Sequence record: KJ190158
Length of the DNA: 64,000 nt
From: Escherichia phage FFH2
Reading direction: 5' to 3' (one strand)
Shown: piece by piece, positions 3,697 to 41,755 of the stretch
Numbering within the stretch: the stretch's first letter is position 1
Layout: each line of letters begins with the position of its first letter
The notes under the pieces: model-generated
The model's input: only the letters and a program-made list of their open reading frames with translations
What the model was told of the DNA's origin: nothing
The model's database searches: none
Program-made: the position numbers and the translations under genes

Positions 3697-4310
3697 TGGA
3701 TATTATTGTTCTTAACGCCCCACCCAGCAGTGGTAAGGATCACATTGCAGATCTCTTGTTGGAAGCTATTCCTAACTCACACCACCGCGAGGTTAAGGAG
3801 ATGCTCTTTAGTGTGGCAATTAAGGCAGCTGGTGTAACTCCTCAACTCTGGAATGCACTTTATGACCGCCACTACAAAGAAGAGCCTTGCCCTTTCTTAA
3901 TGATAGACGGCAAGCATGTTTCTCCGCGAGAATGGATGATCCATTGTAGTGAAAATCTGATTAAACCTATCTTTGGTGAAGATGCTTTCGGTAAAGCCGC
4001 AGTCGCATCTTTGAAGAAAGATTTCCCTAAAGGTAAAGGGGTTGTTGTTTACTCCGATGGTGGATTCAAAGAGGAGCTGGCATGCCTTAGCGAGTACGCA
4101 TACAGCACAGGTGGAGATCTGTTGTTGTTCCGTATTCACCGTGTCGGATATGACTGGGGAAATGATTCCAGAACCTATCTAAGTCTGGAAAAGAACGGAA
4201 TAAAAGGAATTGAGTTTGATGTTGTAAACCCTGAAGGTGCACCTTGGGAATGTGCATCGGAGATTGTGTGCAAGTATATTGATGCTAAAGAGGCCCAAGA
4301 AGAATGTTAA
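3693..4310 (+). CDS. deoxynucleoside monophosphate kinase
   Basis: N-terminal P-loop IIVLNAPPSSGKD and the size are typical of phage dNMP kinases (T4 gp1/T5 type). Confidence 0.55.
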   Translation: MMDIIVLNAPPSSGKDHIADLLLEAIPNSHHREVKEMLFSVAIKAAGVTPQLWNALYDRHYKEEPCPFLMIDGKHVSPREWMIHCSENLIKPIFGEDAFGKAAVASLKKDFPKGKGVVVYSDGGFKEELACLSEYAYSTGGDLLLFRIHRVGYDWGNDSRTYLSLEKNGIKGIEFDVVNPEGAPWECASEIVCKYIDAKEAQEEC

Positions 4311-25446: not shown

Positions 25447-25707
25447 TTGATGAAGATTAAACTGAAAAACCTTGAAATGGCAGAGATTCAGGATGGTGTT
25501 GATTTCCGCTCTAAAGATGGTGACATCTTAGAGGTAAATCTTCCAACCTACGAGCTGATTAAAGGTTTTGGCAACGTTCAGGAAGAGGATATTCCAGAAA
25601 TTCTTATGATGTTGATTCTTGACGGAACTGTGTTTGTAGGTGAAGGTGAGAACGCTATTGCAATCCCAGGCCATTTTTATGAAGTAGTTGACGAAGAGGT
25701 GCTGTAA
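25447..25707 (+). CDS. small acidic protein, family paralog 7
   Basis: MMKIKLKNLE... C-terminal EVVDEEVL. Confidence 0.45.
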   Translation: MMKIKLKNLEMAEIQDGVDFRSKDGDILEVNLPTYELIKGFGNVQEEDIPEILMMLILDGTVFVGEGENAIAIPGHFYEVVDEEVL

Positions 25708-26058
25708 ATGAAAGTAGAAATTACCGGTTTTGATGTGAATGTGGTTCCGGAAGATATTTTAGCTAAACTTCCAGAAGGTTTTGGTAACGGCGTTGTGGTG
25801 GATGCTGTTCCTCCTACCAAAGACATTCTGCTGCAGTATGGTGTAGCAGAGGAAGATGTCGATAAAGTTCTTACAATGATGGCAATCGATCGTGTTGTCG
25901 TTGTTAAAGGTCTCGATAATTTTGAGAGTGATCCACTGATTATTCGTGGAGATGACTACAAAATCATCGATAATGAAGGCCAAGAGTTCTATGAGCCTTG
26001 TGCAGAAGATATTCTTAACTTATTACTGGAAGCAGGCACCGAAGAGGAGGACGAATAA
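25708..26058 (+). CDS. small acidic protein, family paralog 8
   Basis: MKVEITGFDV...; highly acidic C-terminus. Confidence 0.45.
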   Translation: MKVEITGFDVNVVPEDILAKLPEGFGNGVVVDAVPPTKDILLQYGVAEEDVDKVLTMMAIDRVVVVKGLDNFESDPLIIRGDDYKIIDNEGQEFYEPCAEDILNLLLEAGTEEEDE

Positions 26059-28824: not shown

Positions 28825-29037
28825 ATGATCAACACACATGCATCTGAAGAGACATCCGAAGGAGTTACCATCTGTCCCTTGGCTGAGCCAGTGAAAGAGG
28901 AAAACTTCGATTCTGAAGATTATCCATCTCCGTCCCAGGTAGATCCTGAGGCTGATGACCTAACGTGGGAAGACATCGTAGATATCTGGTTCTCTATTAT
29001 GCCTGAGCACGAAGAGTTCAGGGGTGGTAGACTATGA
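28825..29037 (+). CDS. hypothetical acidic protein
   Basis: ORF. Preceded by a 29-aa hydrophobic peptide ORF (28738-28827) and a TGGACA-17-TAGTAT promoter-like site (28677-28705). Confidence 0.4.
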   Translation: MINTHASEETSEGVTICPLAEPVKEENFDSEDYPSPSQVDPEADDLTWEDIVDIWFSIMPEHEEFRGGRL

Positions 29038-29156: not shown

Positions 29157-29372
29157 ATGAAGATAGAAATATTTGGTGGAGCTGACAACACTCGTGGCCT
29201 GATTTACCTTGAATTTGATGAATCATACCTGCCAGAGGTGTTAAATATAGACTCTGTTGCTGAGGCTTTGGGAGTAAACCCTAAAGAACTCCACTCTTGT
29301 GCTGAGATCGATGGTTGGGAAGAGACCATGAACATTGATTTCAGTGAAGTAGAGGATGAACCGCTGGACTGA
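29157..29372 (+). CDS. small acidic protein (MKIEIFGG..., family-like)
   Basis: gaggagatttt RBS. Last + strand gene before the ORF-free region. Confidence 0.4.
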   Translation: MKIEIFGGADNTRGLIYLEFDESYLPEVLNIDSVAEALGVNPKELHSCAEIDGWEETMNIDFSEVEDEPLD

Positions 29373-32714: not shown

Positions 32715-32987
32715 TTACTTATGGCGGCAGAATTCAAGCGTTTTTAATTGATAATCTTCCTCAGCCTGGAGTACTACCGCCTCGATCATTTCGTTGGCAT
32801 TGTTAAAGCCATAACCTTTAGCGAACTCATCCGCGCCACCTTCGTGATCATGTTCTGCGTTCATCGCTTCCACAAAATGGAATTCCAAATTGTTGAGGTA
32901 GGGGCTTGATGTTCCGTCCTCTTTTTCGATGAGATCCCAGATAGCATTAAAACGTGATTCGACTTCTTGATTAATCCAGCTTGACAT
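32715..32987 (-). CDS. hypothetical acidic protein (90 aa)
   Basis: ORF; promoter TTGACA-17-TAACAT at 33042-33070 and 5' hairpin gggcacttttgccc. Confidence 0.45.
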   Translation of the reverse strand: MSSWINQEVESRFNAIWDLIEKEDGTSSPYLNNLEFHFVEAMNAEHDHEGGADEFAKGYGFNNANEMIEAVVLQAEEDYQLKTLEFCRHK

Positions 32988-38035: not shown

Positions 38036-38659
38036 TTATGAAAAACTCATCTCTCCATATTCATCTACATCAAACCGCCAATCATTGGCCTCAATAAGGC
38101 CGATCAGGTTTTCGGTAGTGAACTGCTCTAGATAGGCCTCCTCCAGGTCTACGTAAACCTTGCGGGATAGCTCCCGTACCGTCTCGGTGATCAGCTCTTC
38201 CAGGTCTTCCACTTTGTTTTCTTGTTTGGCGGTCAGATCTAGCCAGGTGGTATCAATGTATCCGCTTACAGTGTTTTCATGGCTGTAATGGCTGTACTTG
38301 TCGCGTTCAATACTGGCTGATAACTCGCCATCGTGCATTGTGCCGAACAAGTGACGAATTGATCGGAACTTGGTCAGGGCCTTTACTTTACGCAAGAATT
38401 TTTCTAAATCCACGTTTTCAGCACTGATTGACGCGCCGTCACCCTGGCACCAAAAGCCGGACCAATGTACATCGGTATCTTCAAGGCCGTACTCTGGAAA
38501 AACTTGTTCTTTATAATATTCAATTACACTTTCTGCGAAAAAATCCTCTCCGCTGTGTTCTTCTCTTTCGCGGACCATTTCAATAGCTTTTTCTTTTTGT
38601 TCGTCGGTCAGCACGTCGAAAGATAAATTGCAACCTGTGGTAATGTTAACGGTGGTCAT
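38036..38659 (-). CDS. hypothetical highly acidic protein (207 aa)
   Basis: ORF; promoter TTGACA-16-TATAAT at 38717-38744 and 5' hairpin ggcgggaagttttcccgcc (38688-38706). About 25% D+E. Confidence 0.5.
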   Translation of the reverse strand: MTTVNITTGCNLSFDVLTDEQKEKAIEMVREREEHSGEDFFAESVIEYYKEQVFPEYGLEDTDVHWSGFWCQGDGASISAENVDLEKFLRKVKALTKFRSIRHLFGTMHDGELSASIERDKYSHYSHENTVSGYIDTTWLDLTAKQENKVEDLEELITETVRELSRKVYVDLEEAYLEQFTTENLIGLIEANDWRFDVDEYGEMSFS

Positions 38660-38994: not shown

Positions 38995-39239
38995 AGTGTT
39001 TACTCCTTCCTTCTTGCTTTGATGTGGTTAGTATATCCGGACTATTCCAAGGTGTCAAGCTTTAAATAAAATCACTGTCAATGATATTTTTAACACCATA
39101 AAACGGCCCTAGGCGATGTTTTCAGGTTAATAAAGGGGATTGCATAGGTAGGGGCTTTTGTGGCGTTTGTGGGGCCAACCAGGGGCGCTATTCGTAGGAT
39201 AGAAATAAAAAGCCCCGCACAATGGCGGGGCGTTGGTTG

Positions 39240-39856: not shown

Positions 39857-40102
39857 TTATTTGACGATACCGACAAAACAGATCCCGCCTTCCCCTATAT
39901 AGGCAATATCGGTAATTTTATAATTTGTCAAGATCCGCGTGTTCAGATCATTAATAAAATCGGTCATCGCGTTGGTGTAGTTGTCTTCCGTGTCTAAGGC
40001 ATAATCCCAGGTGTAAACCTTTTTACGTCCGAAGCCTTTTACCATGATACGGGCGCTTTTGGTGTTGGTAGGGGCATAATATTTGGTAATTAGTGCGGCC
40101 AT
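39857..40102 (-). CDS. hypothetical protein (81 aa)
   Basis: ORF; conserved 45-bp element copy 2 (40146-40190) upstream. Confidence 0.45.
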   Translation of the reverse strand: MAALITKYYAPTNTKSARIMVKGFGRKKVYTWDYALDTEDNYTNAMTDFINDLNTRILTNYKITDIAYIGEGGICFVGIVK

Positions 40103-40191: not shown

Positions 40192-40533
40192 TTACTCGTT
40201 TTCTTCCAGTTCTGCAAGCTCTTCTTTCACTTCTTCAAGCTCTGTCTGTAATTCTTGGTATTCTTCATCGTCCTCAATATCCAGGCTGTCGATGTAGTCG
40301 CTAAATCCGCAGCGGTAAGCGATAGGATCTAGCTCCTTGAGGATACGCGACGGAAGAAAAGAAATGTTTCCGATCATAATTTCGCCGTAGATCTCGTCTA
40401 ACCATTCATCATAGTTTTCGTCGTACTTGTCCTCGTCGATTTCAAAGTTATCGATCTTATTCTCAAGGTCTGCGATCTGTTTTTTCAGCGCGGCGATCTG
40501 CATGGCTTTTTCTGCGGCGGTCATAGTAGTCAT
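40192..40533 (-). CDS. highly acidic coiled-coil protein (113 aa); possible DNA mimic
   Basis: About 30% D/E (ELEEVKEELAELEENE, DEDKYDENYDEW). Size and charge resemble Ocr-type anti-restriction proteins. Promoter TTGACA-16-TATACT and 5' hairpin gggaaaacttccc upstream. Confidence 0.45.
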   Translation of the reverse strand: MTTMTAAEKAMQIAALKKQIADLENKIDNFEIDEDKYDENYDEWLDEIYGEIMIGNISFLPSRILKELDPIAYRCGFSDYIDSLDIEDDEEYQELQTELEEVKEELAELEENE

Positions 40534-40810
40534 GGTGTTTTCTCCTTTTGTGTGTTCTGGGAAGTTTTCCCGTTTATGTGTTTAGTATACTGATCTAAGT
40601 TAGCTTGTCAATTAAAAGTTTAAGAAAAATTTTGCGATACCGTTGGCGCTACCCATCAACATTTGCGCCAGGATGTAACCAATGATGCAAACGATAATAG
40701 TTACCTTTGTGTGCTGGCGTGTAGTACTCATCTTCAAGCCTCCTTTTAGCTTAACTGGGATTAGTTTACTTTATTGATGGCCCTGGCGTCAAGACCATCT
40801 AAAAATAAAC

Positions 40811-41206
40811 TTAGTAAGTTTTCAGTACTTTCCCGTCCAATCTGTCAAGCTGGATCTCGATAGCTGCAGAAAACCTATTATAAACCACATCGCCCATGGA
40901 GTCCAGCCAATCTATGACGTTATACACCTGCTCTTTATTCTTGCAAGTCCGGATCCGTTTCATTACGTAAGACGGATCAATATTAGTGCTCTCGTTGTTG
41001 TGGTCATGCGCCTGGCCTGCTGCATTAGTTATAGATTTTACAACCACCTGAAAGGGCTTTAAGGTGCCTTTTGCGTTCATCTCACGCGCTTTTGCGGCGC
41101 GGTTGTTATATGTTACACAACGGCGGCAAATGTTGACCAAATGCATATCAATAATTTTTTCATCGTTTGCCAGTTCGTTCATGATGCGGCGTACGTTCTT
41201 ATTCAT
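40811..41206 (-). CDS. hypothetical protein (131 aa)
   Basis: ORF; promoter TTGACA-16-TAAACT and hairpin ggcgggaatgtttcccgcc upstream. A 35-aa hydrophobic peptide ORF (40624-40731) lies downstream. Confidence 0.45.
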   Translation of the reverse strand: MNKNVRRIMNELANDEKIIDMHLVNICRRCVTYNNRAAKAREMNAKGTLKPFQVVVKSITNAAGQAHDHNNESTNIDPSYVMKRIRTCKNKEQVYNVIDWLDSMGDVVYNRFSAAIEIQLDRLDGKVLKTY

Positions 41207-41691: not shown

Positions 41692-41755
41692 GATTTTATC
41701 CTCTTAGTGTCTTTTGTGATTTCAGTATATTTTGTGTCGGGGCGTATGTCAATAC

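Follow-up and report, generated by a model that had tools for sequence, protein, structure and literature searches.

T7 Ocr (gp0.3; Pfam PF08684) inhibits type I restriction-modification (R-M) systems and BREX by DNA mimicry: in the homodimer, carboxylates on the surface coincide with the phosphates of ~24 bp of bent DNA. Genes of host takeover and anti-defence classically lie at the leftmost, early end of T7-like phage genomes. The plasmid anti-restriction proteins ArdA and ArdB-KlcA are also acidic and early-acting, with ArdA working by mimicry. Another T7 protein, gp5.9 (PF25708), is an acidic coiled-coil DNA mimic of RecBCD (PMC9836394) that blocks both RecBCD and MukBEF, and so it serves as proof that acidic coiled coils can mimic DNA (PMC9836394; PMC7617805). 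PARIS is set off by DNA mimics such as Ocr, and retron Ec48 by RecBCD inhibitors such as gp5.9. DNA mimics are structurally diverse, and the established ones include small acidic helical proteins of unrelated fold (PMC9836394); a missing Ocr fold therefore does not exclude mimicry.

Here we examine a 113-amino-acid (aa) protein encoded by Escherichia phage FFH2, within a 64,000-nucleotide stretch of sequence record KJ190158 (the window) that is part of a Vequintavirus genome (rV5-like E. coli myophage). A preliminary description of this gene had proposed an Ocr-sized, extremely acidic coiled-coil protein that might serve as a DNA-mimic anti-restriction factor. The gene and its expression signals are as follows.

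40192-40533, minus strand: protein-coding gene, 113 aa plus stop (ORF list, orthologs, PHROG 9294, dN/dS)
40542-40546, minus strand: Shine-Dalgarno sequence AGGAG, 8 nt 5' of the ATG (read from the sequence)
40584-40611, minus strand: sigma-70-type promoter, TTGACA-16 nt-TATACT, 11/12 consensus (promoter scan)

The protein is the ortholog of rV5 gp187 (ORF192) and of Bas59_0104 (96% identical), and more than 100 Vequintavirus records hold orthologs at 93-98% identity, annotated 'hypothetical' throughout. The 3 kb surrounding the gene is 94-95% identical to PMBT16, rV5 and ~110 further records, and, far from being a variable accessory, the gene is kept by essentially every vequintavirus. Because dN/dS against the orthologs is 0.07-0.17, indicating purifying selection, the open reading frame (ORF) is a real gene under selection. 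Its promoter coincides with P192, a sigma-70 promoter annotated in the rV5 record, and is also predicted at the equivalent location in phage Gotham; exact copies of TTGACA-N16/17-TATACT number three in the window, against 0.03 expected by chance. The gene lies within a long leftward series of small genes, each preceded by a sigma-70-type promoter of its own, among the earliest genes and apart from the structural and replication modules. Host RNA polymerase very probably expresses it at the start of infection, an early timing to which promoters and gene order would point. The strong promoter of the preliminary description is thus borne out by a near-consensus element, and its 'early island' agrees with the promoter, the gene order and the left-end position of relatives, from which early expression itself would follow.

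Several features of the surrounding sequence are recorded here in their own right. The three exact promoter copies (39030-39058, 40584-40611 and 41724-41752, all on the minus strand) fall within 2.7 kb, each 5' of one small leftward gene, and so the block appears to consist of individually promoted mini-operons. Between ~28000 and 31000, coding strand and GC skew switch: genes run rightward to ~29.4 kb and leftward from ~30 kb, and cumulative GC skew reaches its maximum at 28-30 kb. Scans of the whole 64 kb for tRNA genes and Rfam families returned no matches. Seventeen 'Campylobacter jejuni' phage records (within MG065635-MG065690; C7, C9, A112b, D1 and others) are ~94-95% identical to this region and have the same genome size; probably their hosts are mislabelled, or else contaminated preparations were sequenced.

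The protein contains 35 Asp and Glu residues (31%) against 9 Lys and Arg, for a net charge of -26, and includes the acidic runs DEDKYDENYDEW (aa 33-44) and ELEEVKEELAELEENE (aa 98-113), in agreement with the ~30% Asp/Glu and acidic runs described before. Its pI, predicted to be below 4, is 3.59 as against 3.64 for T7 Ocr in one calculation with EMBOSS pKa values (the Biopython value of 4.05 is that program's lower bound). With this charge and pI it shows the small size and very low pI of the DNA-mimic class. Among ~125 crude ORFs in the window it ranks first by Asp/Glu fraction and has the second-lowest pI, and its acidity exceeds chance. Two ORFs that had been called similarly acidic, 38036-38659 (22% Asp/Glu, pI 4.15) and 32715-32987 (21%, pI 4.11), are indeed acidic but clearly less so.

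Other small ORFs of the window come closer. The plus-strand ORF 25708-26058 (116 aa, net -21, pI 3.62) equals the 113-aa protein in acidity, and so do three further small plus-strand ORFs: 29157-29372 (71 aa, pI 3.52), 28825-29037 (70 aa, pI 3.63) and 25450-25707 (85 aa, pI 3.83). All four fall in PHROGs of unknown function and have no Pfam match; none was listed in the preliminary description, and they are equally valid 'Ocr-like by composition' candidates. Acidic composition is common among early phage proteins, and since at least four other ORFs in the window have a pI below 3.9, composition alone is weak evidence for mimicry.

Comparison with the named families places the protein elsewhere. 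The Pfam ocr profile gave no match at E<=0.1, in a search whose positive control, the Ocr of Proteus phage 309, scored 1e-43; BLASTP against T7 Ocr produced no alignment at E<=100; hhalign returned 0.2% probability, with the same outcome for the phage-309 Ocr; and a fold search did not recover the Ocr fold. Membership of the Ocr family was accordingly rejected, and no Ocr homolog was found within the 64-kb window. No match to ArdA (PF07275) or the Antirestriction families was seen at E<=0.1 in Pfam and NCBIfam. The gp5.9 comparison at first looked promising, with 16/32 identities between aa 80-111 and gp5.9 aa 19-46 (pairwise E 6e-5) and a Smith-Waterman score of 62 against 29+/-5 for shuffles, the best of 899 window ORFs. 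Profile-profile comparison of gp5.9 with the family of the protein, however, gave 22% probability in a different register (hhalign), and PF25708 did not match the 113-aa protein; homology was rejected on these two grounds, and we treat the resemblance as an analogy between acidic heptad helices. The protein lies outside the Ocr, ArdA and gp5.9 families; it belongs to a very large, unnamed and phage-restricted family of small, extremely acidic, probably early proteins.

Alignment of this family indicates that its conserved part is a ~50-aa head (aa ~34-84) and not the acidic coiled coil. The head is laid out as a helix, a beta-hairpin and two helices and carries the motif LKELDPIAYRCGFSDY, in its long form Y-D-E-x-L-D-E ... 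S-R-x-L-K-E-L-D-P-I-A-Y-R-C-G-F-S-D-Y; relatives down to 40-50% identity share Y-D-x-x-L-D-E ... G ... S-R-x-L-K-E-L-D-P-I-A-Y-R-C-G-F-S-D-Y. All the nearly invariant residues of the core motif Y..LDE...G...S..LKELDPIAYR.G..DY are present in the 113-aa protein, with column conservation of 99% at D69, 98% at P70, 99% at A72, 94% at Y73 and 94% at D79. The protein matches PHROG 9294 over its full length (2.9e-54), PHROGs 9396 and 37123 through its head (1e-10 and 4e-10), and the family core profile at 2.4e-30. That 61-position profile retrieved 3,807 clusters at E<=1e-3 and 1,651 at E<=1e-10 (50% identity clusters, 1.84 billion representatives), almost wholly from phages, as well as 2,305 proteins from a set of 5.8 billion, none of which has a precomputed Pfam domain or an informative name. 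Scans of the protein against Pfam, NCBIfam and PADLOC gave only sub-threshold matches (GvpG, HalX, SlyX, LmuB, SbcC-like), rejected as artefacts of composition or heptad pattern; the NCBI name 'gas vesicle protein GvpG, partial' is the same as one of these matches and so is taken as an artefact too. Literature searches on anti-defence in rV5 or Vequintavirus, on PAK_P3 gp86 and on the motif string turned up no member that has been characterised.

Extreme acidity is a trait of the whole family and not a local accident: across 182 representatives at less than 50% identity the median pI is 3.62 and the median Asp/Glu content 27%. Core-only members of 60-75 aa, consisting of the core and a short acidic tail, are common, and the N- and C-terminal heptad helices, absent from them, are a subfamily addition; among 156 non-redundant members the long N- and C-extensions go together (odds ratio 2.9, p=0.003). 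The label 'acidic coiled-coil protein' thus fits the heptad arms, which are optional in the family, and misses the compact head that is the conserved unit. Some members carry the head in tandem or within long multi-module proteins.

The family occurs in 195 phage records (Vequintavirus and relatives, Vibrio, Pseudomonas PAK_P3-like, Clavibacter and several Autographiviridae) and 90 IMG/VR stretches, spanning myo-, podo- and siphoviruses of many hosts; actinobacterial and marine phages carry it with the head residues near-invariant. By a strict pattern it was found at one locus among 185,579 bacterial species genomes, its only 'plasmid' match is a vequintavirus genome, and a plasmid search saw no leading-region context. 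The family is therefore essentially phage-only. The plasmid entry itself, CP057073.1 (PLSDB pRHB39-C03_2, 137,565 bp, circular), is filed as a non-mobilizable E. coli plasmid and has the gene order of the window around the gene; it is a vequintavirus genome co-assembled with a bacterial isolate, through a carrier state or contamination.

Three further observations concern unusual members. Metagenomic proteins P0072-P0076, P0079, P0083 and P0084 (211-837 aa) each contain two tandem acidic heads, with a repeated 'G-A-E-T-F-G-A'-like linker separating further modules, and most of those that reach the C-terminus finish in a hydrophobic segment. The linker resembles a protease processing site, so these may be polyproteins or virion-delivered multi-effector proteins. 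In P0129 (712 aa) the head is joined to DUF3849, the sole such fusion, and the other fusion partners (zinc-ribbon-like tails, coiled coils) are uninformative. In Pseudomonas phage PAK_P3, gene PAK_P30086 (2330-2728) has a product weakly related to the head (~40% identity over 42 aa, E 2e-3). An annotated antisense RNA overlaps this gene, whose surroundings are the early, promoter-rich part of the genome, and the published transcriptomics of PAK_P3 could reveal when such a member is expressed.

Within the 113-aa protein, three segments can be delimited.

40450-40518, minus strand: N-terminal amphipathic heptad helix, aa 6-28, net charge 0, four Lys (AlphaFold2, segment charges)
40282-40443, minus strand: conserved head domain, aa 31-84 (alignments, 61-position profile, AlphaFold2 core model)
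40195-40281, minus strand: acidic linker and C-terminal heptad helix, aa 85-113, net charge -15 (AlphaFold2, heptad core, charges)

AlphaFold2 (AF2), run with the family alignment, predicts a helix at 6-28, a helix at 34-49, a beta-hairpin at 52-59, helices at 61-68 and 70-83, and a helix at 90-111 (pLDDT 91, pTM 0.69). The head comprises the acidic helix a2 (34-49), the hairpin, a3 (61-68) and a4 (70-83), and its core sequence alone gives the same fold (pLDDT 87). Net charge is distributed as 0 in the N-terminal helix, -7 in a2, -4 in the linker at 84-89 and -10 in the C-terminal helix. The heptad character noted earlier is evident in two segments with strict 3-4-3-4-3 hydrophobic spacing, I13-L16-I20-L23-I27-F30 and Y92-L95-L99-V102-L106-L109. 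From the topology of the model, the equal 17-residue heptad spans and a Lys-rich N-helix facing an acidic C-helix, we infer that the terminal helices pair antiparallel into a stalk with the head at its tip, a pairing that would probably bury or neutralise some of the C-helix charge. Foldseek against viral models (BFVD) returned only uncharacterised relatives, no solved DNA mimic emerged as a structural neighbour in the fold search, and PDB sequence searches with the whole protein and the core profile gave nothing below E 0.2.

The most regular feature of the head is a stripe of acidic residues on a2. In 206 non-redundant cores, positions 34, 38/39, 42/43 and 46/47 are 53-93% Asp or Glu, recurring at i, i+4, i+8 and i+12, and the intervening positions 41, 44/45 and 48 are hydrophobic. 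By standard alpha-helix geometry, the carboxylates would stand ~6 A apart on one exposed face, a predicted spacing close to that of the phosphates of a DNA strand.

On this basis our preferred reading, to which we give a probability of about 0.35, is that the protein is a stoichiometric, nucleic-acid-mimicking inhibitor of a conserved host protein. The product would be a soluble, rod-like protein in which a compact ~50-aa head bearing the conserved carboxylate stripe sits atop an antiparallel two-helix stalk, formed by a neutral, Lys-containing N-terminal helix and a very acidic C-terminal one. It would act non-catalytically, as a stoichiometric decoy: by resembling the phosphate backbone, its acidic surface would fill the groove in which a host protein, conserved across bacterial phyla, binds nucleic acid. 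Specificity would come from the invariant head residues K66, E67, D69, Y73, R74, D79 and Y80, and the extra acidic arm of the vequintavirus forms would make a longer charged rod. Mimicry, and with it any target, is thus a reading of several lines of evidence. Counted in its favour are the purifying selection, the promoter and Shine-Dalgarno sequence, the confident fold, the family-wide acidity, the a2 stripe, the size and phage-only distribution of the family, its early left-end placement and, by analogy, the precedent of gp5.9. Counted against it are the lack of a named homolog among the 2,305 matches, of a solved DNA-mimic neighbour and of a conserved neighbour gene that would point to a pathway (at most 8 of 52 loci); moreover, much of the strong conservation concerns hydrophobic or aromatic residues and may only hold a tiny fold together.

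That same conservation, centred on the compact head and reaching beyond the charge pattern to the invariant Asp-Pro, Tyr, Arg and Cys/Val, could instead mean that the head docks on a host protein as a non-mimic, protein-protein effector of host takeover, with RNA polymerase or a sigma factor, a protease, or a division or metabolic protein as candidate partners and the acidity as an aid to solubility or incidental. The commonness of core-only 60-75 aa forms, the early placement, and the tandem and multi-module occurrence expected of a portable binding module would all suit such an effector. A family pI of ~3.6 and a periodic a2 stripe are, however, hard to call incidental, and searches of Pfam, PHROGs, PDB and BFVD found no similarity to known anti-sigma or RNA-polymerase-binding phage proteins; we regard this alternative as somewhat unlikely. 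A broader form of the mimic reading, itself doubtful, is that the acidic head is an unrecognised, widespread counter-defence or takeover module (at least 3,800 clusters) with a new DNA- or RNA-mimic fold, directed against a nucleic-acid-binding protein that hosts from proteobacteria to actinobacteria have in common. Such a module would be deployed as a stand-alone earliest gene, with coiled-coil arms or in tandem copies, and also as part of large multi-module proteins, which may enter the cell together with the DNA.

The genomic context of relatives bears on both the role and the target. The head-family gene of Autographiviridae is one of the first at the left end and follows sigma-70 promoters: it is gene 2 in Providencia PS3, with an annotated sigma-70 promoter 5' of it, and gene 4 in both Proteus phage 309 and Pseudomonas Lepni01. 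By this gene order, and by an Ocr or Ocr-like gene close by in two cases, the family belongs to the takeover and anti-defence neighbourhood. Across 52 non-redundant viral (IMG/VR) loci no neighbour gene recurs. This counts against a phage-internal role, in which the protein would serve the phage's own replication, transcription or assembly machinery as a coiled-coil adaptor, chaperone or scaffold, or would be an acidic partner that neutralises a basic phage protein. Its retention in essentially all vequintaviruses would fit such a role, as would the small basic ORFs that flank the gene, 39857-40102 (pI 8.95) and 40811-41206 (pI 9.7). Since unrelated myo-, podo- and siphoviruses share no common machinery, and the gene stands among the earliest, away from structural and replication modules, we consider a phage-internal function distinctly improbable.

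Some relatives also share their genomes with Ocr itself. Proteus phage 309 has a genuine Ocr 1.1 kb from its head-family gene, and in the IMG/VR contigs L053 and L054 a weak Ocr-like ORF lies immediately 5' of the family member. The paired genes are at 2464-2679 and 3796-4140 in phage 309 (L004) and at 404-637 and 844-1071 in L053, two unrelated podophage-like genomes in both of which the pair is in the earliest region. That phage 309 carries both genes indicates that the head family is not a substitute for Ocr, and co-residence with Ocr and Ocr-like genes suggests a role different from Ocr's. A more universally conserved target fits better, because the family reaches actinobacterial and marine phages with a near-invariant head. 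For the mimic reading, the decoy target is then probably not that of Ocr. What stands of the earlier match to T7 Ocr is size, charge and pI; the homology and fold searches and the co-residence with a true Ocr speak against it.

The most direct data on restriction come from the BASEL collection. All 12 BASEL vequintaviruses plate at an efficiency (EOP) of 0.22-0.90 on EcoKI and 0.5-2.0 on EcoCFT_I, with site counts in Bas53-59 of 9-15 for EcoKI and 4-6 for EcoCFT_I; lambda-vir, with 5 EcoKI sites, is reduced to an EOP of 3e-5, and P2vir, with 6 EcoCFT_I sites, to 9e-4 (PMC8594841). The same vequintaviruses plate at 2e-4 to 2e-3 on EcoRI and form essentially no plaques on EcoRV (PMC8594841). Over Bas48-62, vequintaviruses and phi92-like phages together, the EOP is 0.14-2.0 on both type I systems (PMC8594841, S1 Data, S5 Table). 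The BASEL authors ascribed type I escape to site rarity and held that these phages lack protection against R-M (PMC8594841). A type-I-specific escape of this kind would fit an Ocr-like factor.

The preliminary description had raised this as a possibility; spelled out, the protein would be an Ocr-like DNA mimic that binds an EcoKI-type HsdM2S1/R2 complex and blocks restriction of the incoming genome. Size, charge and pI equal to those of T7 Ocr, an early promoter, and escape in 12/12 BASEL vequintaviruses, with a 96% identical ortholog in Bas59, would all accord with it. The phi92-like phage Bas60, however, escapes EcoKI and EcoCFT_I equally well (EOP 0.42 and 0.91, with 12 and 9 sites; PMC8594841), and a six-frame hmmsearch of its 150 kb found no head-family member at E<=10. 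Type I escape therefore does not track the head family; the attempted correlation of phenotype with gene failed. Some 100 further uncharacterised early genes could account for the escape just as well, and the 113-aa gene is one candidate among many. With no Ocr family match by Pfam, BLASTP, hhalign or fold search, and with relatives that coexist with a true Ocr or an Ocr-like ORF, we judge this explanation highly unlikely.

The phenotype nonetheless has a wider bearing. Compared with lambda-vir or P2vir, vequintaviruses and phi92-like phages evade two type I R-M systems by 3-4 orders of magnitude, yet they have full sensitivity to type II systems and to at least one of type III; the 113-aa gene is, along with several other acidic early ORFs, a testable candidate for the cause of that escape. 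Such phages serve in phage therapy and biocontrol, and for this reason their anti-defence repertoire is of practical value. Should the head prove to mimic nucleic acid, it would rank with the most widespread inhibitor modules known in phages, and one without a solved structural relative. Given how conserved the head is, finding the target of one member would give a function to thousands of early phage genes now listed as 'hypothetical'. The size, conservation and placement of the family commend it for experiments; on the computational evidence it is a well-described candidate and not a proven new mechanism.

Set beside the described systems, the protein resembles T7 Ocr in length (113 vs 117 aa), in its near-equal net charge and pI, in being helical by prediction, in its host-type early promoter, and in the presence of its relatives in the same left-end region of T7-like phages; unlike the Ocr fold, its conserved unit is a 50-aa head with a beta-hairpin. 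Like ArdA it is acidic and, from its promoter and position, would be early, and unlike ArdA its family is absent from plasmids. With gp5.9 it shares a small, highly acidic heptad helix, but gp5.9 is a 52-aa parallel homodimeric coiled coil braced by an N-terminal beta-strand, and the present protein is predicted to form an intramolecular antiparallel hairpin that carries a head domain. Its closest affinity is with the unnamed 'LKELDPIAYRCGFSDY' family of PHROGs 9294, 9396 and 37123, of which it is a member, and to whose compact acidic head the vequintavirus subfamily adds N- and C-terminal heptad arms.
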